Shown: piece after piece, positions 30,972 through 48,440 of the stretch | Layout: each line of letters starts with the position of its first letter | Position numbering within the stretch: the first letter of the stretch is position 1 | Assembly (NCBI GenBank): GCA_963666365.2 | Contig: CAXXNF010000002.1 | Span: 896,001-960,000, forward strand | Length of the DNA stretch: 64,000 nt | Direction of reading: 5' to 3' | From: Syntrophales bacterium | GTDB taxonomy: Bacteria; Desulfobacterota; Syntrophia; Syntrophales; UBA2210 | Notes under the pieces: model-generated | What the model saw: the letters and a program-made list of their open reading frames with translations, nothing else | What the model was told of the DNA's origin: nothing | Databases searched by the model: none | Position numbers and translations under genes: made by a program

Positions 30972-31032
30972 GACGCATCACCCCCACTTTCCACATATTT
31001 AAACATTCTCTACTTTTCATACTTTTCATACC

Positions 31033-31404
<372 letters not shown>

Positions 31405-31493
31405 TTATTTCATCATTTTCTTTCTTCTGCCACATCGCCCTTTTGGGCCTCTCTTCACTTGACTCGGCCTTGTCGTTATGAGAGAAATGCATC

Positions 31494-32000
31494 ATGTACA
31501 TGCGCAGACGATCGAAAAAAAAACACTACAGGCTGACAAGGCTCAGCGAGTTTCTGCCCAAGGTTCTGAAAAAGGAAAACCTCTCTATCTCAACCCTGGA
31601 CCCGACAATTGCCGCGGCCTGGAAAACTGCCGTGGGACCGCTGATTTCAAATCAGACAGCTCCCGTCCGCTTCACGGACGGCACACTCCACGTTAAAGTG
31701 GCCACATCGGCCTGGATGCAGCAGTTGCAGTTCATGAAAAACGAGATCATTGAAAAAGTCAACGAAAGACTTGCTCAGAAAAAAATATCTTCACTGTACT
31801 TTTCAATAGGCCGCCTGACTGCTAAAGAACTGCACGGAAAAGAAGAAATGGAACTCCCGCAATTCGATCCGAATATCCTTCGTGAAAGAGACAAGCGCAT
31901 TGTCGCAGAAAGCATCAGGTCAATTCCGGACGAAGAGCTCAAATCCATTGTTGAACGTGTGATGATCAAGGGAATTATCAACCGCCGTTTTCGTTCGTAA
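31494..32000 (+). CDS. DUF721/DciA-family protein (replicative helicase loader-like)
   Basis: AWKTAVG..I...T.P....G.L.V...SAWMQQL.F.K..II. Confidence 0.85.
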   Translation: MYMRRRSKKKHYRLTRLSEFLPKVLKKENLSISTLDPTIAAAWKTAVGPLISNQTAPVRFTDGTLHVKVATSAWMQQLQFMKNEIIEKVNERLAQKKISSLYFSIGRLTAKELHGKEEMELPQFDPNILRERDKRIVAESIRSIPDEELKSIVERVMIKGIINRRFRS

Positions 32001-32088
32001 CCATGGCAGAATAATAGAACAGGATTGCCGAAATTGCAACGCAGTGTGCCACGGTGTTTTTTTACACATTTTTTCTTGATTTTTCTTC

Positions 32089-32117
32089 TTGAATAGCAGA
32101 TTAATACTAATTAACAT
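32089..32117 (+). promoter_or_regulatory. Putative sigma70 promoter for the TPR/beta-barrel gene
   Basis: TTGAAT-17 nt-TAACAT in an AT-rich intergenic region. Confidence 0.5.
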
Positions 32118-32205
32118 CAAGGTCATAAAAAATCTCAAATAATGGAATATTCATACAGTTTTTCTCGTTCGAGCTTATCGAACCTGTGATTGAAAGGAGT
32201 TGCCC

Positions 32206-33756
32206 GTGAAACGAGGAATATCGATAGCACTGACAGGCCTTTTCGTTTTCTCCACACTGATTTTTTTCCTCCCCCCCCTGTATTGTCAGGAACCCTCGGA
32301 GATCATCAAAAAGGGAATTGCAGAATATAAGCAGGAAAATTATGAAGAGTCCGTGGCAATCCTTGAAAGAGCACGAGCCGAAGAGCCGAATTCCTCGCTC
32401 GCCGCATTCTTTCTCGGCATGGCCTACAAACAGGTGATGGATTTCGAGAAGGCCCTCGTCCATTTCAACGACGCCGTGACGCTGACGCCGCGGATCAAGG
32501 AGGCGCTCCCCGAACTGATAAGCATTCTCTACAAACAGGACAACATAGAAGAGGCAAAAAAATGGATTGCCGTGGCGGAAAAAGACTCGATAATGCCGCC
32601 ACAGATCGCCTTTCTTAAGGGTCTTGTGCTGCAGAAAGAAAATAAATTCACCGACTCGGTCGTCGAATTCGAGAAGGCGACGGATCTCGATCCATCGCTG
32701 AAGCAGGCCGCGGAATTCCAGATTGCCCTCTCTTATGTCAAGGCAAGGAAACTCTCGTACGCGAAGGAGCGTTTTCAGGCTGCCGTTATCGCCAACCCTG
32801 ACAGCGACCTCGCCGCGTACGCGAGACGATACCAGGATCTCGTGGAAGAGCGCATATTTGTGGAGCGGCCCCTTCGTTTCACCCTCGGTCTCTTCGGGCA
32901 GTACGATTCCAACGTGGTGCTGAGTCCGGACGATTCCGTATTTTCGGCCGGAATCACCAATGAATACAGTACGGTTCTCATGCCTTCATTCCGCGTCGAT
33001 TATGTGCCCATTCTTGAGGGATCGAAGCTTTTCAGCGCCCAGTATTCATTTGTATCCAACTACCACGAACACAATTCCACAACCCATGATATGACGGCAA
33101 ACACCATCAGCCTCACCCCCGGCTACAGCTTCGGACGTTCGGCGCTCAATTTTAACCTGAGCTATAGCCATTTTCTGCTGCACGGATCCCGATATATGGA
33201 AAACCTGTCCTACGGGCCCCTCTACCGCTACCTGCTCAATGATACAAACATTTTTGAAGTGTTCGCGGGGTACGGCATAAAAAACTATTTCCAGGACATC
33301 ACTCCGCCCGATTTCGAAAACGACCGCGACTGCGAAGGAATCAATGCCTACCTGAGCTGGGTGTGGCTGTTCAGCCGCAACGCCTTCTTTAACTTAAAAT
33401 ATGAATTTATCGATGAAAACGCCGACGGGCTCCGTTACGAAAACAACGGCCACCGGTTGAGCGCAAACGCTATCATTCCCCTGTTGACCAATCTCAAGCT
33501 GCAGCTCAGCGCATCCTATTACCGGCAGCAGTACCGATACCGACTCAATTACCCCGAGTTCATTGCGGGCGCCCTTGTCAACGTACCCAAGGAACGGCGC
33601 GACAAGAACTTATCGAGCACCATCGGCCTTACCTGGGAATTAAACAGGAATATCAACGTGATTGTGCAGTATTCGAGAACACGGAACGACTCGAACGACG
33701 AAACTTCGGAATATACCCGTCATCTCTACACCGCGGGGGTTGAATTCAAGTTCTAG
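32206..33756 (+). CDS. Outer-membrane protein with N-terminal TPR repeats and C-terminal beta-barrel (Slam/DUF560-like)
   Basis: Signal peptide; helical TPR-like repeats to ~aa 215; barrel opening with QYDSNV; alternating aromatic beta strands; C-terminal beta-signal YTAGVEFKF. Confidence 0.8.
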   Translation: MKRGISIALTGLFVFSTLIFFLPPLYCQEPSEIIKKGIAEYKQENYEESVAILERARAEEPNSSLAAFFLGMAYKQVMDFEKALVHFNDAVTLTPRIKEALPELISILYKQDNIEEAKKWIAVAEKDSIMPPQIAFLKGLVLQKENKFTDSVVEFEKATDLDPSLKQAAEFQIALSYVKARKLSYAKERFQAAVIANPDSDLAAYARRYQDLVEERIFVERPLRFTLGLFGQYDSNVVLSPDDSVFSAGITNEYSTVLMPSFRVDYVPILEGSKLFSAQYSFVSNYHEHNSTTHDMTANTISLTPGYSFGRSALNFNLSYSHFLLHGSRYMENLSYGPLYRYLLNDTNIFEVFAGYGIKNYFQDITPPDFENDRDCEGINAYLSWVWLFSRNAFFNLKYEFIDENADGLRYENNGHRLSANAIIPLLTNLKLQLSASYYRQQYRYRLNYPEFIAGALVNVPKERRDKNLSSTIGLTWELNRNINVIVQYSRTRNDSNDETSEYTRHLYTAGVEFKF

Positions 33757-33772
33757 TGTGAATGATTTCACA
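33757..33772. promoter_or_regulatory. Palindromic operator TGTGAA-N4-TTCACA (Rex- or CRP/FNR-family-like)
   Basis: TGTGAATGATTTCACA immediately after the stop codon of the barrel gene. Confidence 0.55.
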
Positions 33773-33814
33773 TGGAACACACCAATTTAATCGATGATTA
33801 GCCGCCATTGCCGG

Positions 33815-33843
33815 TTGAAGGCGCCGGCGTATTTTGCTAAACT
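33815..33843 (+). promoter_or_regulatory. Putative internal promoter for the giant gene
   Basis: TTGAAG-17 nt-TAAACT with extended -10 TG. Confidence 0.55.
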
Positions 33844-33919
33844 GATATCATCATTTCATAAACGAACGACGCCGTGGAGGCGCCTGACAGATAACCGCCA
33901 ATCGTAAAGGACTCAAAGG

Positions 33920-36900
33920 GTGACCGCAATGAAGATGAAAAAATATATAGTATTTTTTATTCTGATAGGCCTGATTTTCCTGCTGCCGCTTTCTGTACTC
34001 GGTGCGAGCATAGGGAAGTTCACCTTTACCCAGGGAACGGTGGATCTCACACGGCCGGGAGAAGCGGCGCAGCCGGCCACGGTCGGCGACGAGATCGCCA
34101 TTGGCGACTTTATCCGCACCAAGAGTAATTCAAAGGCGGAAATTACCTTTGTAGACGGGAGCATCACCCGTCTGGCGCCCCGTTCGCGTCTTAAAATTAC
34201 GGAATACTTCATCAGCGATGAAGGGCGGAAAGGCACCCTTGACCTTGTCAGAGGAAAGGTACAGAGCGTCATACAAAAGACTGAAATAACCGGAACGGAC
34301 AGCCGCTTTGAAGTGCACACCCCTACCGCCGTCTGCGGCGTCAGGGGCACCATTTTCTTCACCTATTATCAGGACGGCGTATCCGGCGGCGCAACTCAGG
34401 ACGGCGTGGTCTATGTATACAGCAAGAACAGGCCGAGCGAAGTAAGGACTATGTCCTCAGGCGAGGCGATGATCGTTACGAGCCCTGACCAGCCTCCAGT
34501 GGTGCGACCGGCCACGGATCCTGAAATTCAGCAACATACAGACGATACCAGTCCCGGTGACGACGGAGAGGAAGGCGATGATGACAGTGGCGACGATGAC
34601 GGTGGAGGCGGCACGCAGTCTGGCGGAACCCAGGGTGATGAAGGTGGCGGCGGAGCCGGCGGCGGTGATGGTGGTGGAGGAGAGGGAGCCGACAGTGTTG
34701 ATGAGGAATTAATAACCACCACGTTACTGACCGGCACGGAAGATACCTCCGGCGACAGCGGCCAAGGCCCCGGCAGTTCACTGCCCGGGCCGGACACTAC
34801 CGGCCAAAATCTTGTGGACAATACCCCTGAACCGATAATTGAGCCCGAAACCCCCTCAAACGCCTTTTGCAGTACGGGTGAATACGGGTATGGAACGGTC
34901 ACCCTGGCGATCACTCCCCCTGAAGGAACGCAGCAATACGGCGCCATTGATATAAGCGGCATAGTCTATGATTCTGTCTGGATGGGTTCGATTGCCGCCG
35001 CCTCTGAAGAGGGCAGCAAATTGGGCGGCTACTTTGCGGGTGTAGCCGGTTCATGGCGCGGCTATCTGAGTACGCTCTACTGTGAGACGAACGACCGTAC
35101 CGAGGGAGGCCACATACTAGGCTATCTCTCTACCGATCCCTCGGGGAGCTTCGAAGCCGAAACCGGCGCTTTTGCGGGAAGCGGCACTGTCCTCATGATT
35201 CCCATGGCGGACACCACCTTTAATCCTACTGAATTTACTGCACTTCTCAATGACGAGATCTATCAAGCGGATCTCCCCTTCTCGCGCATCCCCTTCCATG
35301 CATTTACCCTGGGAGTGATCGATTTCGACGGTTCCTTCAGTGGGTCCGTGACTTCCGAAGGAGACTATAAAGGAATCGACGCCGGCGATATTCTCCTCGG
35401 CGTATGGGCCGCGAAAACTAAAGACGGATATTACTCGAATGTGAACCAGCATGATCTCGGAACAATTTATTTCGGTTATACTCCTGACCTGGATGAAGAT
35501 GAAGACTGCTACATGATAGGCGGCATCGACGGGAATCAATCTCTCGGCGACGATGGCGACGGCCATATTGACCTTTACGGCTACGCCACCTATATCGACC
35601 ATGAGCACCTCGGTGTGCTCGACTTTCGTCATCTCGGCGTCTACGAGGGCAACCCCGGCGCCTACAACAGCATTACCAGCGGCACGGCAACCCTTTACCC
35701 CCTCGCCTTTTCGGGGCACATCGGCGGAACAGTGAGACCGGTGGGCGCAGTCGAACAGCAACCTTCCAGCCTTTACAGAAACGAGGGGGGCATGGCCTTG
35801 ATCTATGCCCACGAGGAAGGCATCGTCGGCGGCCGTACAAGCCCCTGGGGCGCCGCCGACTCCACTCTCAAGGATGTGCAGCCGGGATTCTTCCGTGCAC
35901 TGGGACAATACTATGATACGGAAGAGGCGCCACTGGTCAGTGCAACCCCTTCGCACTTTCTCTGGAACACCGCTTCATACCTGTCATACCTGAACCGAAA
36001 CGAAGGCGGCACGCTTGACAGAGAAGAGCGTTCCCTGTCCTTTGTGACAGGGCTCTGGAAAGACGACGGAACCATCGTCGGGGAAAGCATCGGTTTTTAC
36101 GAAAGCGACGACGGGACCCTTGGCATTATCGGCGGTGATCTTACCGGCTATTATTACACGGATCTGGGCATGTGGATGATCGAAGGCACAGTAACTCCCG
36201 ATGATACGATTATCGGCACATTTACCGACAGCACGCACCTCTCAATGGACGAAATCACCGGCTCTCTCTACTCCGATTTCAGCGACGGCAGCTATGTTGA
36301 GGGTGCAGCTCTCGGCAGCGCATTCAGACTCACCGACAACGAGGGAACACCCGCCCTCTTCGGCGTATTCGATATTTTGTTCGGCGGGTATTCCGAGTTC
36401 TTTTCAACCGGCGGCGGCAACACCTTTTACTGCGCCTCGGAGAATTATGCGGACATGGCGGGTCGCGAGATACTGTTCGGCTCTTTTGCCTACAATCCCT
36501 ACACATATCCCGTATCATACCCCCTGAATGGCCTGGACATGGGCGGCGGCACTTATATGATGGGGTCACTGATCATCGACAGCTGGAACAACGACGGCAC
36601 CATTTACGGAACCCTCACGAACGGTGAGTATTTCTATCTTTCCCTTGACTCCTTCGGTAGCTTTGAGGGCTCTTTCTACGGCCTCTATGATGAGCTGGAA
36701 GCCGGTTACGGCACCTGGATCGGCGTAAGCGCAGGCGCCTTTGTTGGTGAACCTCTCGCATACAGTGGATTATGGGGAAATTACCTGTTCGATGGATTCG
36801 ATGCGGGCTGTCTTTTTACCGTCGATTCCATCGATGAGTATGGCGACCTCCTTACCATGGGCGAAGAGTACGGCCTCTTCGGCCTTGCACCCCGGGGCGA

Positions 36901-39900
36901 CGACTACCTGTTCGTTGCCATGGGTTCCTACGACGCATGGGATGAAGGCATCGGTCCCTATCTGTGGAACACGCCCATAATGAGCGCAAGCTTCGATCCC
37001 TATGAGTATACCTTTTTCGATAATGAAGGCATCGCCGGGTATACCACGGGCATATGGAACAACGGCGCCCTCGAGGGCTATGCCCTGGCCCTGCTTTCAC
37101 GGTACGACGGAGAAACGGGCCTTGTCGATCTCGGCGTCGTCGCGGGACCGCTCACCGGCACATACAATGCCGACATTGCCATGTGGATGGCGCAGGGTAC
37201 GGCAACCACCAACATCCGTGAGACCGGCGTCGATCCCTTGGTGTTTGAACTGTACGGTGACTGGGGGTATTTCGATGAATCCTGTCTGGCGGGAGATTTC
37301 GAAGGAAATGGCTCTATCGAGGGATACAGCGACTGGGGAAGTACATACTTTGCAGGATATTACGATGCGGAAGAGGATCTCGACCTTTCCTATCCCTGGG
37401 GCATCTACAGCGTTACCATGGCGGGAACGTTTGAAAACCCGAATTCCGGATCTTCATGGTCGGCTGTCATCGGCGGGTTCGGTGAATTCGGCTACGACGA
37501 CCGCTACTATAATTTCAACGATGAATACGGCTACCTCGAAGGCTACTGGATCGCCTCCGTCTCCGGCATATGGAATGAGGACGGTACGATACTGGGCTAT
37601 CTAGGCATTGAAGAGGAAGAGAACGGCATTACCTTTTTCAGTACGAGTGTAATAAGCATCCCCGAGCCGGGTGTAAGCGACGAAGGCTTCGGACTGTTTA
37701 TCACGCTCCAGGGAATCGGCTCTATCGGCGGTCCCTTCTACGGTCTTTATGACAACAACGATTATTGGATCGGCGCGAGCATAGGCACCTTTGAATTGGA
37801 GGCCGCCTTTGACATGAGCGGCTACTGGGAGCATTGGCTTCTTGCTGACGACGGGGGATCTCTTGTCGAGGTGGGCGAGGGATGGGGCATTATCGGCCTT
37901 GTCGAAAACGAAGGCATCTACGAATATTTCGGCATGGGGGAATTCTTCGCCGAAACGGGGTACGACTCCTATCTCTGGGATACTTTCACCTATGGGATCC
38001 CCGGAACGCTCTCCACCAGCGCAACTCCCTATCACATGTTCCTGGGATATGCCGGCGGCATATGGAACAACGGAACATGGAACGGATATGCATCATTTCT
38101 CTATTCCGAAGCCGATCAGGATACGGGGTTAGTCAATCTGGGATATCTTTCGGGATCGATAGACGGCGTCTACTATCCCGGCATTGAAATGTGGATAATG
38201 GGCGGCACGCTTACCCCGGAAATCAAAGTGAGCGGCCTTGATCTTTCCGAAGGCGGCTATTTCTGGGAATACGGCAGTTCTCTTACGGCGGCCCTGTCGG
38301 GAAGTTTCGGTGAATTGCAAGAAGGCGCACTCTCATCGGAGTTCAACGAGGAGGACATGCAGGGAAACACGTTCTTCTTTGTAGTAGAAACTGCCGATCA
38401 GCAAGGGCCACTTCCCTGGGGCATCTACTCGCTGAGTCTGGGGTATGACAGCGCCTATTCGCAACCCGAAGGCACAGATGCGTTCAGTGCTGTAATCGGC
38501 GGAGAAGGCGCCTTCAGCGCCTCCGATACGGGAAGCCCCGAATACGGCTACTGGATGGCTTCCGTCTCCGGCATATGGAACGAAGACGGCACAATCAGCG
38601 GCATGCTGGGCGAAACGGAGGAGCATGAAAACTCCTTCGGCTTCTATCTGAACGCCACGCACATGGGAACTCTCGGCGGACCTTTCTACGGTCTTTACAG
38701 TGAAACCGAGGCGGGCGTCGGTACCTGGGTTGCCGGAAGCGTTGGCGCCTTCGACGGGGCGCCGCTGGCGCTCGGCGGTGAAATAACCGGGAATGCTCTT
38801 TATTACGACGGTACCGCTCTTGTCACCGGAAACAGTGTCGAAGGTCTTCTCGGCGCCACGACGAACCCTCTGTTCGGTGAGGAACTTACGGAAGCAGTAA
38901 TCATGGGCGCACTGAATGTGAATGACCCCGCTGCTTCAGGCCTTTACGAGCAGGAGGTGACCGGCTGGTCCGCCGACGGAGACGCCTTTACCGGATTTAT
39001 GGCGAGCATCCGTACCAAAGAGCCGTTCTATGGGGGTGTCGGCTTTCTCCTCGCCTTATATATCGATTCAGAAGGCAATGCAGGAATTCTTGAAGGGGAG
39101 TTTGAAGAAGCCGGCCGTCTAAACAATAGTGTATGGCTCGACTACGGAATCCTCTCGGCCATTCCACAGGGCACGACGTCAATAACCCCGGATATGCTCT
39201 ACGATTCTCTCATAACAAGCACATTCGAGGGATGCGGGGGATACAGTCAGGAAGAGGGGAACGGCCTCTGGACCGAATCCGTTTCGGGAACACTGCTCGG
39301 ATTAATGGATCAGGATTGGGGAATTTTCAGGATATCTCTCGGCGGCAGCTATGAAGGCGTACTCCCCTACTCTGTCATGGCGTTCTGGGGCGCCTCCGCC
39401 ACGCTGGACGAATTGCCCGGGTATGTGTTCGGGATTTCAGAAACAATGCTGCAGGAAGAAGCCTTTCCGCTTGTAGCCTTCTCATATGGCTTTGCGCTGA
39501 ACGACTCTTATCTGTATATGCTTATGGGCGAACTGATCGGCACTTATCAGCCCGACGGCGCCGCCGGAGGGGAACTCGAAACAGGCACGTGGCAGGCTTC
39601 CGGCGTCGGACGGTATGAAAGGGCTGCATTGTCCGCAAGCGGCGCCTGGAACGCCGAACAGACACCCGACGTATTCTATAATTCAGAAGGCTATATGGAG
39701 TCGGCCGGCGTAATGACGGGAATTATCGGCATTGCTGATGAAGAAAGCGGGTTTTTCTCATCTCTCGTCGCCATGGGAAGTTATGAGGAATACGCCCCTG
39801 CGCAACTCTATCTGTGGAATTCACCCCTCGAAGTCGAGTGGAAAGACGGATCGGGCGGATTTTACGGTTACGGTATCGGCATCTCGGGCAGTTGGTATAA

Positions 39901-42900
39901 TGATTACAGTGCAACCGCAGGCATGACCGTTTCCCTCGGATACATGGTAACTCTCTTTGATCAATACGATGCCGACGGCATGACATTCGATCTGGGAATC
40001 ATGTCGGGGGAAATGGAAGGATTCTTCGTAAACGATTCGGGACTCTGGTTTATGATGGGAGAGTTTGACGATGCCCTGATAATGGATACGGTCCCCGATT
40101 CACTGTCGGTATCGCTCGAAAGCGGTACGCTCGACGGCGACTTTTACGGCGATTTTATAGGCTCCGGCTCCATTACGGGCAACGGTGCAATCGGAACCAC
40201 GGACTTCTTTGTAATCTCCGAAGGAGAATTGTCCTATTCGCTCCCCTGGGGTATTTATAGCTTCATCCTTGCTTCGGGAAACTACTATGAAAATCCGCTT
40301 TACGAAACCGACTTTTCCGCAATTGTCGGCGGAATGGGCGTTTTCGGCTATGAGTTCGACGGTACCGACGGATATGACGAAACCGGATACTGGATAGCCA
40401 CAGTAGAGGGCTATTGTGATGAAGACGGTTCAATTTTCGGCGATCTCGGTATGTTCGAAGATGATGGCACTACCTACAGCGCAGGCTATTATATAACCGA
40501 TACGCACATGGGAACAATTCAGGGGCTTCTCCTTGGTATCTACGAAGCATCCGAAGACGAAGGATCCGGCACCTGGATCGGCGAAAGCCTGGGAACCTTC
40601 ACGGGTGAAGAACTCGCCTATGGCGGCGCCTGGGGCGGTTATTATAATGGTGGTTACGATGCATTGAGTGCCGGCAGTCTCTTTTCCCTCGGTTCCGTGA
40701 TTACCGATGAATATGACGACACCTATATCGAAGGTCCGATGGGAGAAGAATTCGGCATGTTCGGTCTTGCCCCGAGAGGAAACGACTATGCCTTTCTCGC
40801 CATCGGCGAATATGAATATTATGACGAAAGCGGCAGCGGACCTTATATCTGGAACACGCCCATCGCAAGTCCCGGCTTTGACCCCTACGATTTCCTCTTC
40901 AACTATGACGGTATTGCAGGATATACCTCCGGCATTTGGAAAGATGGCTCGATGGGTGGTTATGCCGTTGCACTTTTATCGCGATATGACGACGAAACAG
41001 GCCTCGTCGATCTCGGCTTTGTCACGGGACCGCTTGCAGGCATCTACAGTCCCGAGATCGCCATGTGGATGGCGGAAGGAATGCTGATCACCGACATAAG
41101 GGAAGTCGGTATCGACCCGGAAGAGTATGAGTTATATGGTGACTGGGGCAACTTCGATGAAATAACCTTTACTGGAAGCTTTCAGGGCAGCGGGTATCTC
41201 GAGGGATACAGTGATGGAGGCCACACCTACTTCTTCGGTGCGATCGACCAGGCAACGGAAATCGACATTTCCTATCCCTGGGGACTCTACACCTTCACTA
41301 TTGCGGGCACGCATGATAATCCCGAACTGGGTTCCTCGTGGTCGGGGCGCGTGGGCGGGAACGGCGAGTTCGGATACGACAGTCGCTTCACCTCATCTTA
41401 TTACGAAGGGTGCTGGTTAGCCACTGTTTCAGGCACATGGAACGATGACGGCACGATCACCGGCGTTGTGGGCGATACGGCGGGTGAGGATGACGACAGG
41501 TTCGGCATTTTCATGAGCGTCAAAGGAATGGGGAAAATAGGCGGGCCCTTCTGCGGACTCTATGACGATACCCTCGGTACCTGGATCGGCACGAGCATCG
41601 GCACCTTTAAACAGGAAATCGCCTTCGACTGCGCCGCCTATGTGGGATTTTACGGAAGCGAGCTTTTCTATGACGACGGCGGGTATCTCGCCTCGGCGGG
41701 ATGGCTGGAAGGTTTGTCCGGTCTTAAATCGACGGATACGGGCTTTGACTTCCACGCCATGGGAATGTATGACGATTACGATGCCTATGGTATCTACGAG
41801 GGCCCCTATCTTTGGTATGCCGATGTTTCGCCGGGTGAATACTACTACAACTATTATGCTCTCAGCCCCATGGTCGCAGCGGGGGAAGAACACGTCAGCG
41901 GTTATGTGGGCCGCACCATCGGCATCGCGAAAGAGGGCGCCATGGGCGGATACCTTGCCGCGTTGTTCGGCCGGTTTGATTCCGAGGGCACATCGTACCA
42001 GGCAGGTCTCTTATCAGGATCTGTCGAAGGCACGCTCTTCGATGATATCGGCATGTGGCTGGCAGCAGGCACGATGGACTATACACTCCTTGTTGAAAGC
42101 GCTCCCTACTCCGAGAACCTGGACGTATACCCCGACTGGGGCGATCTGGACTACATCGCGCTTTCGGGAAGCTTTGATGGCAATGCGGGGATGATCAGCG
42201 GCGCCAACGGCTACGGCAGCACCAGCTTTATCAGCGTCTACAACATTGAAACCGACTATGAATCATCATACCCCTGGGGCATCTATGAGTTCATTATCGG
42301 TACCGGAAATGCCTATGAAAACCCGAACGCATCGACGGTCTTCTCTGCGACCATCGGCGGATACGGCGAGTTCGGATACAGCACCGATGCCGACGGTATG
42401 CACATCGGCTACTGGCTTGCCACGTTACAGGGCGACTGGAACAGTGACGGAACCATTATAGGCACCCTCGGCAAGGTGGCTGAGGATGACGGCACATTTG
42501 GCGTTTACCTTACCACCGGCCAGCGCGGCGTTATCGGTGGTCCCTTCTATGGGCTTTACACCGAGGCAGAAGAAGGCGGGTCCGGCACCTGGGTAGGCGA
42601 AAGTATAGGCACGTACCAAGGTTCAGCGCTGCACCATGTCATTCAGATTGAACCCACAGACGGATATAGAAACGCCACCTTGATCACCCAGGTCTGGGAT
42701 AGTCAGTACGAATATTTGTACTACGAGGAAGACGGCTCCCTAACGGCACTTTTCGGCGGAAGCGATATAATCAGGGATGCGACGGAAGCTTCACCCGCCG
42801 ACGTCCTGATGCTGGGCGAATACTATCCGGAAAGCACTCAACCGCACATGTGGTACTATGGCACCAGACCATGCGAACCTGCAAGTATCTTCACCACAGA

Positions 42901-45900
42901 TGGCGGGGCATACAGGACTTTCTTTGTGGGCGCTGAAGCGGGCAATGCGATGGATGCGCTCCTGCTCGGTCTTTACATAGACCCGGACGGGAATCCGGGC
43001 TATCTCAAAGGCACAATGAGCGGCAATGCCTATAGTGAAATAGATATGTTCTTAATGGATGGCAGCCTGTACCCGACTATGGTGACATCCTCGGCAACCT
43101 ACAACCCCGAAGACATTCAATACACCTGCAACGATGCTGTTGCAATAGTACGATCCATGCCCCTATCGCCTTTTGCCTTCGATGGAACCTACGGTTTGGA
43201 AGGTTCAATGGTGAACTATGAAGGCTGTACCGGCGCCCAGCGCCCCTCCAGTTCCTGGTGGTTTGAGGATTATGAATCGAACACGTCCGAGCACTGGGGC
43301 ATATACTTCCGGAGCGTGGCAGGAACCTATCAATCGCCATTAGAGGGAGAATCGTGGACGGCAACGATGGGTGGAATGGGATTCTTCGGCTCATTTGAAA
43401 ATAGTGATTGCGGGGAGCTTACACCTGCCCGTGGATACTGGCTGCTGTTCCTCGGTGGCGAGGCGCAGGATAGCATGCTGACCGGCGCCGTATGTGAAGG
43501 ATACTATGTCACGACGAACACGATGGGAATCTTTTCTGAAGAAGCGGGCACAGGCATGACGGGAGATCTGCTTGGAACCTATGATTCGACTAACAATACA
43601 TGGCAGGCAGGAATCCTTGGCACATGGGCCGGAACACCCACAGACTTCGGAGGGTATTGGCACCATAGCACACTCTATAATGATAATGTCTACCTGGAAT
43701 GGGCCAGTGTAAACAGCTGTAGCAAGGAGAATGAGGGTACCTTTGGATTAATAGAGAATACGGAAGGTGGATATGACTTTTTCGCCATGGGACGATATTA
43801 CGAGCCGCTATCACAGGGAGCAGGCTTTGTCGGACCGTACCTCTGGAACGGGTCATTGTCGTATGATGACCGTCGAATGGGCAATCGCAACTTTGAAGCC
43901 TTTGTCGGCGGCATTTGGTCGAATGGAGCAACCACCGTGGCGGCGATGGAAGGCGTAATTACGGCCCTTTACTTTACCGAAGAACTTATCGGTGAGAATT
44001 TCGTTCCCGCAGCAGGCCTTATGACGGGTGACCTGTCCGGCGTCCTGCACGAAATGGTGTATTGGACCCATGACGACATGTCCGGCATGTGGCAGGTTGA
44101 AAGCGATGAAGAGGGACTTGCCGTCATTGAAAGGCCTGTGCCGGAAGACTTCACGGCGGAAAACGCCTATGTCGACGAAGACGGCATCTCTGCCCACCTT
44201 GCGGGCGGGTTCGGCGGCGCCGGCGGAATGAGCAGTGAATATGAGGGGGGCAGTACACGGTTCATCAGTTATGATGTCTATGAATCCGAAACCTTTATGG
44301 CCACGAAGAGCCTTCCCTTCGGCATCTACAATCTGAAGCCGGCTGACGGTTATGGAAGCAGCTACTTCACCGGCAAGCCTTCGGGGACTTCTGTTGAATG
44401 GAACGCAACGATAGGCGGCGCCGGTTACTTCGGATACAGTTATACCTCTGACTACGGTTCACACTATCATCCCGGCTTCTGGCTGGCCGATATTACAGGT
44501 ACATGGGATGCACGCGCTGCGGAAGAGGGACAGGGGACCATCAGCGGCACATTGGAGGGCGCCTATATGACCTATACGCATGTAGGAACCATAGGAGGTC
44601 CCTTTTACGGACTTTATACCGAATCAGGCGAGGCCGGAGACGGCGCTTGGGTCGGAGAAAGCCAGGGCGTTTTCGATGCCTCATCGACGCTCACCTTTGC
44701 CAATGAGCTGAATGCGGATATCATCAGTTGCTGCGTGGGACCCGAAGGGACTATGGCCGGTATTCTGGGCGGACCGGATTCGCTCTGGACCGGTTCAGAC
44801 ATTCCGGTTTATTCAATGGGAGCAGTCACCAGCGGCACTGAATGCATCTGGTATGATCACTATTTCATGAGTGCCAACTACCTGACCGGCGAAAGCGATA
44901 CCTACGACGGCGGCGCCTTTTACGGAACCGTCAGCGGTATAAAGCAAGACGAGTTTCTGTCGGGCAGCCTCTTTGCCCTTTACATAGACAATGCCGGCGC
45001 CGCCGGATATCTCGCGGGAGACCTCTCGGGTACGGTCTACGAGACACTCGGCCTTTATGAAATGGACGGCACTGTGAACCGGATCGTCATGAACGAGACT
45101 CTTGACGGCGTAAGCCAGACATCGTTTCCTGGTGCCGTCACCCGTATTGACGGCATCGACTTCATGGGATCAGGCGTGTTCAGCGCAGGAGGAGACATCG
45201 TTGAACTTACATCCGAATATGACGAGGGATGCGGCTTCAGCGCCTTCATCACCGGTCAGGATTGGGGCATGTGGGCCTCCACGCTCTACGGAGCATACAC
45301 CGACAACAGTGAGCTGACAAATGATACCTGGTCGCTTGAGCTGGTGGAAGCCGCTCAGGAATCACCGACGGGAATGAACCACTGGATGGAAATATCAGGG
45401 ACGAAGTTCTCCAACGGTGAAATGGCGGGAAACACGGCAGGCGCCTGGGTGAACTGGGATCAGGCCATGACGGGAGTCTCCGGGGGCACGCTCAAGGGGA
45501 CCTTCGATGCCGCCAACTTTGCCTGGGAGGCGGTAGCGAAAGGTGCTTCCATCGAAACCCAGAAGTTCCTCGACATGGTGGCCAACAGCCCTGAAAAACT
45601 GGCACAGTTGAATATTCCCTGTGTTCAGATCGGCACCACCGATCTTACAGGATCGAACGGAGACCTGACGGTGAATATGAACAGTGTGAACTTCTTCGCC
45701 TACTCAAACGGAACATCGCCTTCAATATGGGCCACTGATTCCGTGAGCGGCGCCTACAATCAGGAAATACCAAGCTACACGGGTACATCGCTCACCCTCA
45801 GCGGCAATGGATTCAGCAGCGTTGATTTCGGGGTGAAGAAATGGGATAATGCCCAGTGGGGCGCCGCAGTGAACGGCGCCGGCAACGTACCGGGAACCGA

Positions 45901-46000
45901 CTTTAATGTGAACATTACAGGGGCTGCGGCGGGAACGTTCAGTGCCGGCACTCTCAGCGGCACCGGCGCCGGCGTTGCCTCCCCGGGCGGCAGCAGGTGA
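33920..46000 (+). CDS. Giant (4026 aa) secreted FecR-domain protein with tandem beta-rich repeat modules
   Basis: Sec signal peptide without lipobox Cys; FecR domain (GD.IRT...S.AEITF.DGS...EVHTPTAVCGVRGT); D/G/E linker; ~11 modules ending in GGPFYGLY..GTW.G.S.G-like motifs; uninterrupted 12-kb ORF. Confidence 0.9.
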   Translation: MTAMKMKKYIVFFILIGLIFLLPLSVLGASIGKFTFTQGTVDLTRPGEAAQPATVGDEIAIGDFIRTKSNSKAEITFVDGSITRLAPRSRLKITEYFISDEGRKGTLDLVRGKVQSVIQKTEITGTDSRFEVHTPTAVCGVRGTIFFTYYQDGVSGGATQDGVVYVYSKNRPSEVRTMSSGEAMIVTSPDQPPVVRPATDPEIQQHTDDTSPGDDGEEGDDDSGDDDGGGGTQSGGTQGDEGGGGAGGGDGGGGEGADSVDEELITTTLLTGTEDTSGDSGQGPGSSLPGPDTTGQNLVDNTPEPIIEPETPSNAFCSTGEYGYGTVTLAITPPEGTQQYGAIDISGIVYDSVWMGSIAAASEEGSKLGGYFAGVAGSWRGYLSTLYCETNDRTEGGHILGYLSTDPSGSFEAETGAFAGSGTVLMIPMADTTFNPTEFTALLNDEIYQADLPFSRIPFHAFTLGVIDFDGSFSGSVTSEGDYKGIDAGDILLGVWAAKTKDGYYSNVNQHDLGTIYFGYTPDLDEDEDCYMIGGIDGNQSLGDDGDGHIDLYGYATYIDHEHLGVLDFRHLGVYEGNPGAYNSITSGTATLYPLAFSGHIGGTVRPVGAVEQQPSSLYRNEGGMALIYAHEEGIVGGRTSPWGAADSTLKDVQPGFFRALGQYYDTEEAPLVSATPSHFLWNTASYLSYLNRNEGGTLDREERSLSFVTGLWKDDGTIVGESIGFYESDDGTLGIIGGDLTGYYYTDLGMWMIEGTVTPDDTIIGTFTDSTHLSMDEITGSLYSDFSDGSYVEGAALGSAFRLTDNEGTPALFGVFDILFGGYSEFFSTGGGNTFYCASENYADMAGREILFGSFAYNPYTYPVSYPLNGLDMGGGTYMMGSLIIDSWNNDGTIYGTLTNGEYFYLSLDSFGSFEGSFYGLYDELEAGYGTWIGVSAGAFVGEPLAYSGLWGNYLFDGFDAGCLFTVDSIDEYGDLLTMGEEYGLFGLAPRGDDYLFVAMGSYDAWDEGIGPYLWNTPIMSASFDPYEYTFFDNEGIAGYTTGIWNNGALEGYALALLSRYDGETGLVDLGVVAGPLTGTYNADIAMWMAQGTATTNIRETGVDPLVFELYGDWGYFDESCLAGDFEGNGSIEGYSDWGSTYFAGYYDAEEDLDLSYPWGIYSVTMAGTFENPNSGSSWSAVIGGFGEFGYDDRYYNFNDEYGYLEGYWIASVSGIWNEDGTILGYLGIEEEENGITFFSTSVISIPEPGVSDEGFGLFITLQGIGSIGGPFYGLYDNNDYWIGASIGTFELEAAFDMSGYWEHWLLADDGGSLVEVGEGWGIIGLVENEGIYEYFGMGEFFAETGYDSYLWDTFTYGIPGTLSTSATPYHMFLGYAGGIWNNGTWNGYASFLYSEADQDTGLVNLGYLSGSIDGVYYPGIEMWIMGGTLTPEIKVSGLDLSEGGYFWEYGSSLTAALSGSFGELQEGALSSEFNEEDMQGNTFFFVVETADQQGPLPWGIYSLSLGYDSAYSQPEGTDAFSAVIGGEGAFSASDTGSPEYGYWMASVSGIWNEDGTISGMLGETEEHENSFGFYLNATHMGTLGGPFYGLYSETEAGVGTWVAGSVGAFDGAPLALGGEITGNALYYDGTALVTGNSVEGLLGATTNPLFGEELTEAVIMGALNVNDPAASGLYEQEVTGWSADGDAFTGFMASIRTKEPFYGGVGFLLALYIDSEGNAGILEGEFEEAGRLNNSVWLDYGILSAIPQGTTSITPDMLYDSLITSTFEGCGGYSQEEGNGLWTESVSGTLLGLMDQDWGIFRISLGGSYEGVLPYSVMAFWGASATLDELPGYVFGISETMLQEEAFPLVAFSYGFALNDSYLYMLMGELIGTYQPDGAAGGELETGTWQASGVGRYERAALSASGAWNAEQTPDVFYNSEGYMESAGVMTGIIGIADEESGFFSSLVAMGSYEEYAPAQLYLWNSPLEVEWKDGSGGFYGYGIGISGSWYNDYSATAGMTVSLGYMVTLFDQYDADGMTFDLGIMSGEMEGFFVNDSGLWFMMGEFDDALIMDTVPDSLSVSLESGTLDGDFYGDFIGSGSITGNGAIGTTDFFVISEGELSYSLPWGIYSFILASGNYYENPLYETDFSAIVGGMGVFGYEFDGTDGYDETGYWIATVEGYCDEDGSIFGDLGMFEDDGTTYSAGYYITDTHMGTIQGLLLGIYEASEDEGSGTWIGESLGTFTGEELAYGGAWGGYYNGGYDALSAGSLFSLGSVITDEYDDTYIEGPMGEEFGMFGLAPRGNDYAFLAIGEYEYYDESGSGPYIWNTPIASPGFDPYDFLFNYDGIAGYTSGIWKDGSMGGYAVALLSRYDDETGLVDLGFVTGPLAGIYSPEIAMWMAEGMLITDIREVGIDPEEYELYGDWGNFDEITFTGSFQGSGYLEGYSDGGHTYFFGAIDQATEIDISYPWGLYTFTIAGTHDNPELGSSWSGRVGGNGEFGYDSRFTSSYYEGCWLATVSGTWNDDGTITGVVGDTAGEDDDRFGIFMSVKGMGKIGGPFCGLYDDTLGTWIGTSIGTFKQEIAFDCAAYVGFYGSELFYDDGGYLASAGWLEGLSGLKSTDTGFDFHAMGMYDDYDAYGIYEGPYLWYADVSPGEYYYNYYALSPMVAAGEEHVSGYVGRTIGIAKEGAMGGYLAALFGRFDSEGTSYQAGLLSGSVEGTLFDDIGMWLAAGTMDYTLLVESAPYSENLDVYPDWGDLDYIALSGSFDGNAGMISGANGYGSTSFISVYNIETDYESSYPWGIYEFIIGTGNAYENPNASTVFSATIGGYGEFGYSTDADGMHIGYWLATLQGDWNSDGTIIGTLGKVAEDDGTFGVYLTTGQRGVIGGPFYGLYTEAEEGGSGTWVGESIGTYQGSALHHVIQIEPTDGYRNATLITQVWDSQYEYLYYEEDGSLTALFGGSDIIRDATEASPADVLMLGEYYPESTQPHMWYYGTRPCEPASIFTTDGGAYRTFFVGAEAGNAMDALLLGLYIDPDGNPGYLKGTMSGNAYSEIDMFLMDGSLYPTMVTSSATYNPEDIQYTCNDAVAIVRSMPLSPFAFDGTYGLEGSMVNYEGCTGAQRPSSSWWFEDYESNTSEHWGIYFRSVAGTYQSPLEGESWTATMGGMGFFGSFENSDCGELTPARGYWLLFLGGEAQDSMLTGAVCEGYYVTTNTMGIFSEEAGTGMTGDLLGTYDSTNNTWQAGILGTWAGTPTDFGGYWHHSTLYNDNVYLEWASVNSCSKENEGTFGLIENTEGGYDFFAMGRYYEPLSQGAGFVGPYLWNGSLSYDDRRMGNRNFEAFVGGIWSNGATTVAAMEGVITALYFTEELIGENFVPAAGLMTGDLSGVLHEMVYWTHDDMSGMWQVESDEEGLAVIERPVPEDFTAENAYVDEDGISAHLAGGFGGAGGMSSEYEGGSTRFISYDVYESETFMATKSLPFGIYNLKPADGYGSSYFTGKPSGTSVEWNATIGGAGYFGYSYTSDYGSHYHPGFWLADITGTWDARAAEEGQGTISGTLEGAYMTYTHVGTIGGPFYGLYTESGEAGDGAWVGESQGVFDASSTLTFANELNADIISCCVGPEGTMAGILGGPDSLWTGSDIPVYSMGAVTSGTECIWYDHYFMSANYLTGESDTYDGGAFYGTVSGIKQDEFLSGSLFALYIDNAGAAGYLAGDLSGTVYETLGLYEMDGTVNRIVMNETLDGVSQTSFPGAVTRIDGIDFMGSGVFSAGGDIVELTSEYDEGCGFSAFITGQDWGMWASTLYGAYTDNSELTNDTWSLELVEAAQESPTGMNHWMEISGTKFSNGEMAGNTAGAWVNWDQAMTGVSGGTLKGTFDAANFAWEAVAKGASIETQKFLDMVANSPEKLAQLNIPCVQIGTTDLTGSNGDLTVNMNSVNFFAYSNGTSPSIWATDSVSGAYNQEIPSYTGTSLTLSGNGFSSVDFGVKKWDNAQWGAAVNGAGNVPGTDFNVNITGAAAGTFSAGTLSGTGAGVASPGGSR
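34860..45560 (+). repeat. Degenerate intragenic tandem repeat, ~0.85-1.06 kb period
   Basis: Module-end motifs at ~35630, 36668, 37727, 38675, 39527, 40520, 41540, 42536, 43562, 44594 and 45485. Confidence 0.85.
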
Positions 46001-46024
46001 TATATCTAAGCCTTAGTACTACAG

Positions 46025-46063
46025 GAGGGGCACTGTAACTGAATTACCGTGCCCCTCTTTTTT
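46025..46063 (+). terminator. Intrinsic terminator after the giant gene
   Basis: GAGGGGCAC...GTGCCCCTC followed by TTTTTT. Confidence 0.8.
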
Positions 46064-46087
46064 AAAAATTGAAAGGAGTTATGTTGT

Positions 46088-46609
46088 ATGAAACGTTCCT
46101 GTGTGGTTGCTTTTTCCTTTATGCTTATCTTTTCTTTTCTCATGGTATCGACTGCCTGTGACGCAGCAACGGTAAAAATCGGCGTTATCGATACGCAGAA
46201 GATTCTGCGCGATTCGCAGGCAGCCAAGGAAGCGCAGAAGGTTTTTCGAAGGGATCTTGAAGCGAAACGGGCCGTATTGAAATCCAAGGAACAGGAAGTG
46301 ATGGTCCTGGATCAGGAAATAAAAAAAGAGGGGCCCAAAATGGAAGCGACGGTGCTGAAAAACAAGCGTGAAAAGCTTGCCGATGAAATGAAAGAACTGA
46401 AACGCCTCAGGACCGATCTAAGCGACGACCTCAAGAAGAAAGATGCCGAACTGACCCAGAAGATCCTGAAGGAAATCGATGCAATCGTCAAGGATTACAG
46501 CAAGAAGAATAAATATACGATCATACTCGACAGGCGCATGGTCATAGACTTCGATGAAACTGTGGAAATCACGAATGATGTCATTAAAATTTACGACAAA
46601 AAGAAATAA
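46088..46609 (+). CDS. skp: OmpH/Skp periplasmic chaperone
   Basis: Signal peptide, KIGVID.QKIL..S, long coiled coil, Y.IILD, ITNDVI. Confidence 0.9.
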   Translation: MKRSCVVAFSFMLIFSFLMVSTACDAATVKIGVIDTQKILRDSQAAKEAQKVFRRDLEAKRAVLKSKEQEVMVLDQEIKKEGPKMEATVLKNKREKLADEMKELKRLRTDLSDDLKKKDAELTQKILKEIDAIVKDYSKKNKYTIILDRRMVIDFDETVEITNDVIKIYDKKK

Positions 46610-46640
46610 ACCCGGTACGTTACTATAACTGTTTTAAAGA

Positions 46641-46712
46641 TTGTCTCGCGCAGCGGGTGGGCATGAGAGGAATTATGTGACATGTTTCCAGGTGCTCTGC
46701 TGCGCGAGACAA
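46641..46712. repeat. Long inverted repeat between convergent genes
   Basis: TTGTCTCGCGCAGC...GCTGCGCGAGACAA; perfect 14-bp arms around a ~44-nt centre. Confidence 0.75.
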
Positions 46713-46752
46713 AGGGCGGAAAGCCCAACAACCCTGATCCACACACGCACAC

Positions 46753-47196
46753 CTAATCCATGGTCGCGAAATCGATCTGTACCACTTCTTCCCCGAGCGC
46801 GGCTGCATCCTCTCTGCGTTTGAACTGTCTGATCTTATCCATCAACCAGAGCGCCTGCGAAGGCGTAAGCACTTCGAGCTTTTCCGCCAGAAGAACGGGA
46901 TCAACGCCATAATTGACGCTGATCTTTTCGCAGCGTTCCACATCCTCCACATCCCAGGCAAAAAGCATGGGCCATTCCTGGAATCTGTCTATCCCCATAT
47001 CGGTATTTTTAAATAACTCACAGAGCAGCGCTGCTTCCGCGTCCGTAAACATGTCGCGCATTTCCACCGCAGTTGCATCCACGAGCGCATAATAGGATTG
47101 TACCGCTTCCCACGCCGCATCGGGCAGATTTTCGTTTCGTTTTTCCAGTCGTTTTATGAGCGTTTCCGAAATGTGAACAGTGACCGGTACATTCAT
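46753..47196 (-). CDS. Hypothetical protein, possible N-terminal ribbon-helix-helix
   Basis: 147-aa ORF starting 29 nt downstream of tRNA-His; PVTVHISETLIKRLEK is strand-helix-like. Confidence 0.7.
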   Translation of the reverse strand: MNVPVTVHISETLIKRLEKRNENLPDAAWEAVQSYYALVDATAVEMRDMFTDAEAALLCELFKNTDMGIDRFQEWPMLFAWDVEDVERCEKISVNYGVDPVLLAEKLEVLTPSQALWLMDKIRQFKRREDAAALGEEVVQIDFATMD

Positions 47197-47224
47197 ACAT
47201 TTCTATCGATTTCAAAAATAAAAA

Positions 47225-47302
47225 TGGGGTGAGTGAAGGGATTTGAACCCTCGACCTCCGGGGCCACAACCCGGCACTCTAACCAACTGAGCTACACCCA
47301 CC
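47225..47302 (-). tRNA. tRNA-His (GTG)
   Basis: G-GTGGGTGTAGCTCAGTTGGTTAGAGTG CCGGG TTGTGGC CCCGG AGGTC GAGGG TTCAAAT CCCTT CACTCAC C CCA; G-1, discriminator C and CCA are all encoded. Confidence 0.97.
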
Positions 47303-47527
47303 ACAGAATATTACCCCTTCGAGAGTGGCATGTCTCTGACGATGACCCAGTGTGCTGATACATCGCTGAAGGATGATGTTCATATCATACATTCTTTGAG
47401 ATTGGCAATAAAAAAGACACGCCATCACACCAAGGAACGTAAAAACTGCTCTATGCCGACCGTTTGACATTATAATGGAAAGTAACGCACAGTTGTTTGA
47501 GCAGCATACCGAAAATAAAAAAAATAG

Positions 47528-47613
47528 ATTTTCGCGCAGGGCGCAGTGGCGCTGAGAACAAGCCAATAAAAATAGTTTTTCTCTGCGAACTCGCCGTCTC
47601 TGCGGGAGAAAAT
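47528..47613. repeat. Degenerate REP-like palindromic element (CGCAG/CTCTGCG units)
   Basis: Arms ATTTTCGCGCAGGGCGCAGTGGCGCTGAGAA and TTCTCTGCGAACTCGCCGTCTCTGCGGGAGAAAAT around an A-rich loop. Confidence 0.6.
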
Positions 47614-47678
47614 GAATACGTTACTTACAAGAGCGCTGGACATGGTGCCACGCCGCCCCTCACCCGAGATCCTCGAGG

Positions 47679-48440
47679 TTACACATATCCGTATGCGGTC
47701 CACCCGCCATCGACCGTCACAACACAACCCGTGATATAGGCAGCTTCGTCGCCGGCCAAAAAAACTGCGGCACCGGTCACATCCTCCGCTTCGCCAATTC
47801 GGCCCTGAGGTGTTCGTCTCTTTACGGCTTCCAGATCGAGTAATCCCTGGTCAATGACACCCTGCACCAGCTCCGTTCTGATATATCCCGGGGCAATGGC
47901 ATTTACTCTGATATTTTTTTTCGCCCACTCCGAAGCGAGCACTTTTGTCAGCATATTCCCCGCCGCTTTGCTGGCGCAGTAGGCGGCACGATTGGGCGCG
48001 GCAACGATGCCATAGGCCGACGTGATGGTTATGATAGAACCGCCGCCCTGGGGAATCATCTGACGTGCCGCTGACTGGCACCCGTAAAAGACACCGAAAA
48101 GATCCGTTTCCAGCGCCCGTGTCCAGTCCTCGGGGGCGATGCTCTCCGAGGGTCCTCCCATGGAGATGCCGGCGTTGTTGACAAGAATATCAAGTCTCCC
48201 ATAGGTTTCCACCGTTTTATCCACTACATCCTGAATACTCTGCGCACTCCGCACATCAACGGCAAGGGCCAGGGCTTCCCCACCTGCCTGCACAATCTCT
48301 TCGGCAATCGCCGAGAGAAGATCCATCGAACGACTCGCCAGGACTACCGAGGCGCCCTCTTGCGCATAACGCTTCGCAATTGCCTTGCCGATACCCTTGC
48401 TCGCCCCTGTCACTATAGCTACTTTATTTTCAAGCTTCAT
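47679..48440 (-). CDS. Short-chain dehydrogenase/reductase
   Basis: TGASKGIG, NNAG, YCASK, IRVNAIAPG, VDGG; AGGAGG RBS before ATG 48440. Confidence 0.94.
   Translation of the reverse strand: MKLENKVAIVTGASKGIGKAIAKRYAQEGASVVLASRSMDLLSAIAEEIVQAGGEALALAVDVRSAQSIQDVVDKTVETYGRLDILVNNAGISMGGPSESIAPEDWTRALETDLFGVFYGCQSAARQMIPQGGGSIITITSAYGIVAAPNRAAYCASKAAGNMLTKVLASEWAKKNIRVNAIAPGYIRTELVQGVIDQGLLDLEAVKRRTPQGRIGEAEDVTGAAVFLAGDEAAYITGCVVTVDGGWTAYGYV

Follow-up and report, generated by a model that had tools for sequence, protein, structure and literature searches.

Can a β-barrel protein from an anaerobic 'delta' lineage carry the 4026-amino-acid (aa) protein encoded just downstream of it to the cell surface? 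The question was raised by a locus of a Syntrophales bacterium (assembly GCA_963666365.2; 4.0 Mb, two contigs, 94% complete) within forward-strand positions 896,001–960,000 of contig CAXXNF010000002.1, the 64,000-nt stretch of DNA that was analyzed here and is termed the window. An initial annotation of the bare sequence had described three co-oriented genes, encoding a barrel protein, a giant protein and a homolog of Skp, and had proposed a dedicated export module of the Slam, or type 11, kind for an exceptionally large protein. All three open reading frames (ORFs) were found on the + strand, and the proposal is supported computationally by the conserved pairing of the first two genes, a predicted 14-strand barrel and an overlap of the barrel family with SlipAM. 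We therefore favor, with moderate confidence, a dedicated export-and-display module for a giant surface protein, built on a divergent barrel of the Slam/type 11 (SlipAM, DUF560) superfamily. Its direct basis is gene structure, predicted folds, family-level SlipAM similarity, conserved adjacency and co-occurrence across genomes, from which we infer secretion itself. The locus comprises the following parts (positions in the window):

32200 (TTG start, 518 aa) or 32206 (GTG start, 516 aa) to 33756, +: barrel gene, encoding a Sec signal, a TPR arm and a predicted 14-strand barrel
32299–32862, +: TPR arm of the barrel protein (residues ~34–221), presumed periplasmic, helical in the model
32863–33753, +: predicted 14-strand β-barrel (residues 222–518) with terminal Phe
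33920–46000, +: giant gene for the candidate cargo, 4026 aa
34109–34405, +: FecR domain (residues 64–162; PF04773, 49.1 bits, cut-off 24), directly after the signal peptide
34517–34819, +: acidic Gly-rich low-complexity linker (about residues 200–300), seen in the translation
34988–45172, +: array of 11 tandem modules of ~330 aa (residues 357–3751), from self-BLAST and a module hidden Markov model (HMM)
45398–45997, +: conserved C-terminal domain (last 200 aa), from alignments and a predicted model; candidate targeting signal
46023–46065, +: intrinsic terminator after the giant gene and ahead of skp, from sequence and fold energy
46088–46609, +: second copy of skp/OmpH, 173 aa (PF03938, 91.4 bits), with its own ribosome-binding site

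The barrel protein and its family

The barrel gene is single-copy in the genome. Its product had been described as a TPR-plus-barrel outer-membrane protein with a terminal Phe, for which a 14-strand barrel was expected, and these features were recovered: TPR repeats lie at about residues 37–190, with several Pfam TPR families over cut-off, the protein ends in VEFKF and its AlphaFold model (pLDDT 91.8) contains TPR helices at residues 34–221 followed by 14 C-terminal strands at 225–517. The signal peptide of the family ends in an A-x-C/S/A/G signal-peptidase-I site. A lipoprotein was considered and rejected, as the conserved Cys occupies position −1 of this site and a lipobox is absent.

A search of the barrel part against 48,161 solved chains, independent of Foldseek, gave CymA and OmpG, which we take to be 14-strand barrels, as best solved matches, with TPR proteins in the other top rows. 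A sequence search of the PDB with the barrel-family profile returned TPR proteins only. Foldseek ranked BcsC first (E = 8.8e-13) and also listed PelBC, but the BcsC match, with a TM score of 0.38 and a root-mean-square deviation of 11, reflects the TPR-plus-barrel layout common to both proteins. Polysaccharide TPR porins such as BcsC and PelB have 16 strands. The outcome allowed for by the initial annotation, a barrel modeling as an unrelated family such as a polysaccharide porin, thus did not occur.

The model was computed from an alignment of 45 homologs, taken from 120 of 343 matches. Pfam matches among these 45 comprised BBP2_2 in 43, TPR_Slam in 32, DUF2860 in 25 and SlipAM in ten (best 1.3e-8). 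In 36 distant representatives, chosen among the weakest of the best 150 of 4183 matches, BBP2_2 matched 12, TPR_Slam nine, DUF2860 nine and SlipAM seven (best 5.8e-11). All of these best 150 were strong family members, and the border with canonical DUF560 is not visible among them. On the window's own barrel protein, TPR_Slam (PF24575) reached E = 0.0034, below its cut-off. In a sample of 301 genomes of the phylum, SlipAM (PF04575) exceeded its curated cut-off of 22 bits in 37, while a barrel-only profile of our family (A2, E ≤ 1e-15) detected 51 places in 45 genomes; SlipAM also picked up 12 of these 51 places above its cut-off. Two such loci, L109 and L110, encode barrels with 34–37% full-length identity to that of the window and SlipAM scores of 41.6 and 32.4 bits. 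The genes downstream of them encode proteins of 1505 and 901 aa that have a FecR head and share the C-terminal domain of the giant protein (E = 3e-50 and 4e-51); skp also follows at one of the two loci. A language-model look-alike search also gave SlipAM clusters as the nearest named ones (0.97, 191/256 features), a result that serves as a lead only. On the strength of these sequence comparisons, we conclude that the barrel is best placed on a diverged branch within the SlipAM/DUF560 superfamily, without being a Pfam-defined member.

Conservation of the barrel–cargo pair

Related loci were compared for 80 of 116 confirmed relatives, all from 'delta' lineages except for one Omnitrophica bin. 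A same-strand FecR head was found downstream of the barrel in 68 of these 80. Where at least 2500 nt of downstream sequence was available, the head was present in 57 of 61 loci, and either the head or the C-terminal domain in 59 of 61. A lack of conserved pairing between barrel and FecR-headed giant across Desulfobacterota, named earlier as evidence against the proposal, was thus not observed. The remaining two loci are L019 and L055, with the tail-bearing gene located upstream in L055. Co-occurrence also extends to whole genomes: the tail profile A5 was detected in 19 of the 301 sampled phylum genomes, each of which also belongs to the 45 in which a barrel was found.

Cargo ORFs in the related loci measure about 570–3177 aa, although some short 'complete' ones are probably broken genes. 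Forms of at least 2214 aa numbered only four in a large protein collection, the longest having 3698 aa; the 4026 aa of the window represent the longest form found in this analysis. The relatives are not regularly embedded in polysaccharide synthesis clusters (80 loci examined). In one genome of the same taxonomic order, a single contig (G116:C16; 11311–12258, 19038–19961, 4619–5239 and 28143–28781) carries two barrel and two cargo genes, with cargo frames of 2109 and 2943 aa, and here the module is duplicated.

Architecture of the giant protein

The initial annotation had portrayed the giant as a Sec-signal protein lacking a lipobox, a C-terminal autotransporter barrel and an RTX signal, with a FecR domain and tandem modules, and this portrait was accurate. 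The 4026-aa protein starts with a hydrophobic signal and has its first Cys at residue 139, which leaves no lipobox. Its composition is rich in Gly (15.8%) and acidic (D+E 14.2%, K+R 2.5%). FecR was the sole Pfam match at E ≤ 0.1; at this threshold, there were zero matches to autotransporter, RTX, HemolysinCabind, POTRA, Omp85 or two-partner secretion (TPS) families in the giant and zero to autotransporter, POTRA, Omp85 or TPS families in the barrel protein. A sequence search of the FecR head against the PDB gave nothing better than E = 0.34. The terminal aromatic β-signal present in the barrel protein is absent from the giant.

Self-BLAST (74 off-diagonal pairs) and an HMM for which five of the copies served as input resolved the middle of the protein into 11 tandem modules of ~330 aa, nine of them clear (residues 887–3751) and two weak (357–795). 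A sediment-metagenome contig (X3) joins position 41139 to 42133 and thereby skips 993 nt, or 331 codons (41140–42132), corresponding to one module in frame. The run that yielded it holds a related strain, with zero contigs more than 95% identical to the window. Because the contig skips exactly one module, module number varies between close strains; a 993-nt loss also fits the 3698-aa database relative.

The best-conserved stretch of the whole giant protein is its last ~190 residues, and this C-terminal domain is single-copy in the genome. We aligned the last 487 aa of the window's protein with those from 46 loci in which the tail match reached the end, leaving out L053 (43 in-frame residues). 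The family ends in GTAAGVA followed by a variable tail without a terminal aromatic residue. The tail model (pLDDT 92.1, pTM 0.90) consists of three small β-barrel-like domains (model residues 52–187, 199–348 and 361–487), the last of which has eight strands preceded by two short helices. All of the top ten Foldseek matches were TbpB, each of them weak (best E = 6.7e-5, probability 0.47, TM 0.12). In its predicted fold class, therefore, the tail is what one would expect for a type 11 cargo, with homology to TbpB_B_D not detectable; a membrane anchor could have such a fold as well. A complex prediction of barrel residues 30–518 with the last 200 aa of the cargo scored 0.01 against a mark of 0.32, was run without controls and bears neither way.

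A second Skp linked to the module

The genome contains two OmpH genes. As the initial annotation had noted, the window's skp lies outside the usual bamA–skp–lpxD context; the other copy resides elsewhere in the genome, within a bamA–skp–lpxD–lpxA–...–lpxB cluster, and the two proteins share 28% identity. Among the 80 related loci, skp was detected in 14, directly after the barrel gene in six, after the giant gene in seven and 1.8 kb beyond it in one. In the six loci with skp directly after the barrel, a gene for an SLT-domain transglycosylase comes next. These loci, L022 (11630–13667) and five similar ones from Desulfatiglans-type bins, are arranged as barrel, skp, 477-aa SLT-domain lytic transglycosylase and FecR-headed cargo. 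When the count is limited to loci in which the cargo gene is complete and 800 nt or more follow it, skp was present in 11 of 42. The occupation of two different positions speaks for selection in addition to any inherited synteny.

A role for Skp in Slam-mediated translocation, invoked in the initial annotation, is in print for Slam1–TbpB, the translocation of which requires Skp (PMC9090332). The terminator suggested to part skp from the giant gene was likewise borne out, as the hairpin at 46023–46059 with its U-run has a folding energy of −23.2 kcal/mol (z −5.4) that 0 of 200 shuffles equaled. The Skp link, considered the weakest part of the proposal from the outset, recurs in relatives at these two positions. 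It is a recurrent but optional link.

Regulators and FecR proteins beside canonical SlipAM barrels

Additional genes separate barrel and cargo in some relatives. In 14 of the 80 loci, this position is taken by a regulator of the LuxR type that has a VpsT-like receiver domain, and a PilZ protein is also present between the two genes in 12 of 80 (for example, L013, 11477–12769; L064, 5726–7043; L072, 11887–13281). The window itself has neither LuxR nor PilZ. The domain content of these insertions hints at cyclic di-GMP (c-di-GMP) control in the relatives.

We also extended the five places in the phylum sample with the best PF04575 scores (L103–L107), of which L106 was too short to judge. In L103, L104 and L105, a SlipAM barrel is followed by a FecR-like protein and a CHASE2 adenylate/guanylate cyclase. 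At L103, where this trio lies within G278:C1:2148000–2167000, the barrel scores 63.6 bits for SlipAM, and the 872-aa protein encoded next to it combines a FecR head (37.9 bits) with a TbpB_B_D domain at the C terminus (35.5 bits, cut-off 26). Both domains were present in 49 of 79 homologs of this 872-aa protein. L107 (G078:C25, 10705–16145) shows another arrangement, in which the SlipAM barrel (43.7 bits) precedes a 513-aa protein that gave no Pfam match, a CsgG/FlgO-like protein and a CarboxypepD_reg protein. Because FecR/TbpB_B_D proteins adjoin canonical SlipAM barrels, the FecR-headed giant is a plausible cargo by analogy. Published studies describe FecR-domain proteins adjoining CHASE2 kinases in Burkholderia (PMC5192318) and a FecR-domain protein as the target of a CHASE2-cyclase/Clr pathway in Sinorhizobium (PMC5498481). 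As FecR domains and CHASE2 sensors are thus a known pair, modules of the L103 type may signal. No CHASE2 gene was present among the neighbors of the window's locus; the genome has one, on the other contig.

Surroundings of the locus and assembly

Neighboring genes in the window are unrelated to the module and include dciA upstream, genes for a phosphoglucomutase, a glycerate kinase-type protein and a short-chain dehydrogenase, and a Liv-type ABC importer. dciA (31494–32000) lies directly upstream of the barrel gene, as it does in five related loci (L011, L012, L032, L035 and L040), probably through plain synteny of close relatives. Two flanking ORFs, at 28267–29631 (+, 454 aa) and 46753–47196 (−, 147 aa), had zero Pfam matches at E ≤ 1e-5. 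At 54184–56499, 8 kb downstream, a 771-aa type II/IV secretion ATPase (T2SSE) carries an N-terminal GAF domain and an MshEN domain, a composition suggestive of a pilus or secretion ATPase under nucleotide control.

Contigs from the source run span 32200–46700 with zero differences; they possibly represent the same sample as the assembly and, thus, do not provide independent support. A candidate attenuator between the barrel and giant genes was rejected, as the hairpin at 33809–33829 was no better than shuffles (z −1.1). A consensus promoter and terminator scan of 31000–48000 returned 16 hits versus 14.5 in shuffles and 16 versus 15.5, with no excess, and failed to pick up the real terminator downstream of the giant gene.

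A model for export and display, and its alternatives

In the export-and-display module that we favor, Sec would carry the 4026-aa protein across the inner membrane and the extra Skp would help to hold it unfolded in the periplasm. The TPR arm and 14-strand barrel encoded upstream would then recognize the C-terminal domain of ~190 aa, a predicted helical hairpin plus eight-strand β-domain, and the giant protein would cross the outer membrane with its C terminus leading. Outside, the ~330-aa modules could fold into a chain of small β-barrels, while the FecR head might remain periplasmic as a stopper or docking domain that keeps the protein tethered. A role in adhesion or matrix building is likely, given an acidic repeat protein, strain-variable module number and c-di-GMP-type regulators in some relatives.

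Several observations weigh against this model. The window's own barrel gave zero match to PF04575 at E ≤ 0.1, and a genome-wide search found nothing at the locus; the DUF560/Slam match sought from the initial annotation was obtained for part of the family, which overlaps SlipAM, and not for this protein itself. Its sole Pfam barrel match over cut-off was BBP2_2, covering the last 54 residues with 28.8 bits, and NCBIfam EpsL matched with 33.9 bits versus a cut-off of 275. Across the family, BBP2_2 (43/45) and DUF2860 (25/45) match more members than SlipAM (10/45) and, therefore, barrel membership holds only at the superfamily level. No Slam structures were among the Foldseek or solved-chain matches of the barrel. 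On the cargo side, none of 47 family tails matched TbpB_B_D in Pfam at E ≤ 1, hhalign comparisons of cargo-tail alignments (A5 versus the L103 tail and A3 versus A6) gave probabilities of 0.4% and 3.9%, and HMMs of A3, A5 and the module detected nothing in the ORFs of L103–L107, where FecR proteins stand by canonical SlipAM barrels. For Skp, the strong terminator parts the gene from that of the giant, and skp is absent from 31 of the 42 loci in which a complete cargo gene is followed by 800 nt or more of sequence. Finally, the related loci derive mostly from metagenome bins of kindred lineages, so that counts such as 57 of 61 are not independent and overstate the number of events.

A tentative extension retains the threaded, tethered display and adds a signaling function, in which the FecR head would inform partners in the periplasm whether the filament at the surface is bound, pulled or cleaved. 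These may be CHASE2 cyclases in the sister systems and c-di-GMP-linked VpsT/PilZ proteins in the window's family. If so, anaerobic sediment bacteria would possess an outside-in mechanosensing adhesin with type 11-derived barrels at its core. Signaling and display are compatible and not mutually exclusive. We regard as unlikely a trans-envelope signal-perception device that exports nothing, with the barrel holding or gating the FecR protein, the FecR head contacting sensor domains in the periplasm, much as FecR domains pair with FecA or with CHASE2 sensors, and the giant array serving as a sensing antenna. The trio of SlipAM barrel, FecR protein and CHASE2 cyclase in three of the four extended loci with sufficient room (L103, L104 and L105), together with the Burkholderia and Sinorhizobium precedents, would suit such a device, but the single CHASE2 gene of the genome is remote from the window's locus, regulators among relatives of the barrel family are LuxR and PilZ rather than CHASE2 and a strain-variable array of 4026 aa resembles an adhesin more than a sensor.

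It also appears quite unlikely that the giant stays inside, as a periplasmic or inner-leaflet-associated scaffold that docks with the TPR arm of its barrel partner. Such docking is a property of TPR arms, FecR is known as a periplasmic domain and export of the giant is itself deduced; nevertheless, a 4026-aa chain of ~20 or more small barrels fits poorly into the periplasm, and extreme acidity, repeat-number variation and the barrel's kinship with translocons point outward. Very unlikely, in our view, is self-anchoring, in which the C-terminal eight-strand domain would insert as an OmpA-like membrane barrel through BAM and Skp and the TPR-barrel protein would be an accessory. Soluble eight-strand barrels (avidins, a designed soluble barrel and Diels-Alderases) score equally as structural matches, the cargo family lacks the terminal aromatic residue that the adjoining barrel protein has, similar small barrels recur along the soluble module array and the strict co-occurrence with the TPR barrel would be left unexplained. 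A polysaccharide-export porin of the BcsC/PgaA/PelB/EpsL kind with an incidental neighbor is scarcely tenable: the first-ranked BcsC match with PelBC, the weak EpsL match and the phosphoglucomutase gene 4 kb upstream are outweighed by the poor superposition on BcsC, the 14 strands with CymA and OmpG as best matches, the FecR-headed neighbor kept in 57 of 61 loci and window neighbors among which no glycosyltransferase or polymerase genes were found.

Significance

Type 11 secretion is known from a few small, host-associated cargos such as TbpB, hemophilins and NilC, the known ones being well under ~1000 aa. If the export-and-display module is correct, it would extend this system to cargo of another kind and of far greater size, some five or more times that of those known to us. 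For the question of how a 14-strand barrel moves a protein of folded size, this would limit the mechanism to unfolded, processive threading; the dedicated Skp would offer a natural handle for reconstitution. It would also assign a function to a gene pair that is widespread among syntrophs and sulfate reducers of sediments, for which adhesion matters in partner contact. The FecR head, shared with the TbpB_B_D-tailed proteins that stand by SlipAM barrels, would then define a cargo class unnamed in the main texts of cargo surveys. We know of no study of either the FecR-head/TbpB_B_D-tail proteins or the window-type cargo, and a full-text literature search found nothing on a FecR-headed cargo or a barrel/FecR-cargo gene pair.

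According to the published surveys, type 11 barrels have 14 strands versus 16 in PgaA (PMC8406197), the system is proteobacterial and the hallmark of its cargos is an eight-strand C-terminal barrel (PMC8406197 and PMC12282271). The main texts of both papers lack the terms 'FecR', 'Desulf' and 'Deltaproteobacteria'. The node table of the 2021 study (supplement of PMC8406197) includes deltaproteobacterial DUF560 proteins, at least some of which fall into the uncharacterized cluster 7 (35 sequences). In the supplement of the 2025 survey, FecR is a non-significant neighboring domain (201 co-occurrences, false discovery rate 0.24) and OmpH occurs three times, and a hemophilin preprint treats FecR as a nearby regulator gene.

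Comparison with known systems

Polysaccharide porins (BcsC, PgaA and PelB) share the overall TPR-plus-barrel layout, with BcsC as the top Foldseek match, but the window's predicted barrel has 14 strands, no polysaccharide genes nearby and a conserved protein partner instead. Two-partner secretion (TpsB/FhaC with FHA-type giants) likewise combines one dedicated barrel with one very large Sec-dependent cargo encoded beside it. There, however, the barrel is a POTRA-plus-16-strand Omp85 protein, in contrast to the TPR arm and 14 strands predicted here, no TPS domain was found in the window's cargo and the latter has a conserved signal at the C terminus besides the N terminus.

Type 1-secreted adhesins of the LapA/LapE type resemble the giant in being acidic, with conserved ends, a variable repeat middle and c-di-GMP-linked regulation, which in our case concerns relatives of the window. 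An N-terminal plug may be common to both, an idea that for the window's module is drawn by analogy only. In contrast to these adhesins, the module lacks an ABC transporter, a membrane-fusion protein, a TolC-like channel and RTX repeats, the ABC genes near the locus being those of the Liv-type amino-acid importer and not a type 1 secretion set; export would be Sec-dependent and proceed in two steps.

Closer to the window are the FecR-head/TbpB_B_D proteins (L103; P0278–P0350), for which database annotation goes no further than 'FecR domain-containing protein' or 'transferrin-binding protein-like solute binding protein'. In the same phylum, they present the same succession of a SlipAM-type barrel and a Sec-signal, FecR-headed protein, and the FecR head of L103 is 28% identical to that of the window over 93 residues. 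They differ in size (540–1163 aa), in their recognizable TbpB_B_D tail and in the CHASE2 cyclase that comes next, whereas the window's cargo ends in another tail, contains a long array of modules and has no cyclase beside it.

Slam/type 11 systems (Neisseria Slam1–TbpB, Xenorhabdus NilB–NilC and HrpB–HrpC) differ from the module in that the window's barrel falls below the SlipAM threshold, a dedicated Skp paralog belongs to the module, the host is of an anaerobic 'delta' lineage and the cargo is a FecR-headed, unlipidated 4026-aa protein with 11 modules and a tail without detectable relation to TbpB_B_D. What the two have in common is a periplasmic TPR arm joined to a 14-strand barrel, here as predicted, a cargo encoded adjacently with a variable N-terminal part and a conserved C-terminal β-domain of eight strands, which for the window's cargo are those of the model, a link to Skp that is functional in Slam and genomic in our loci, and a barrel family part of which passes the SlipAM cut-off.

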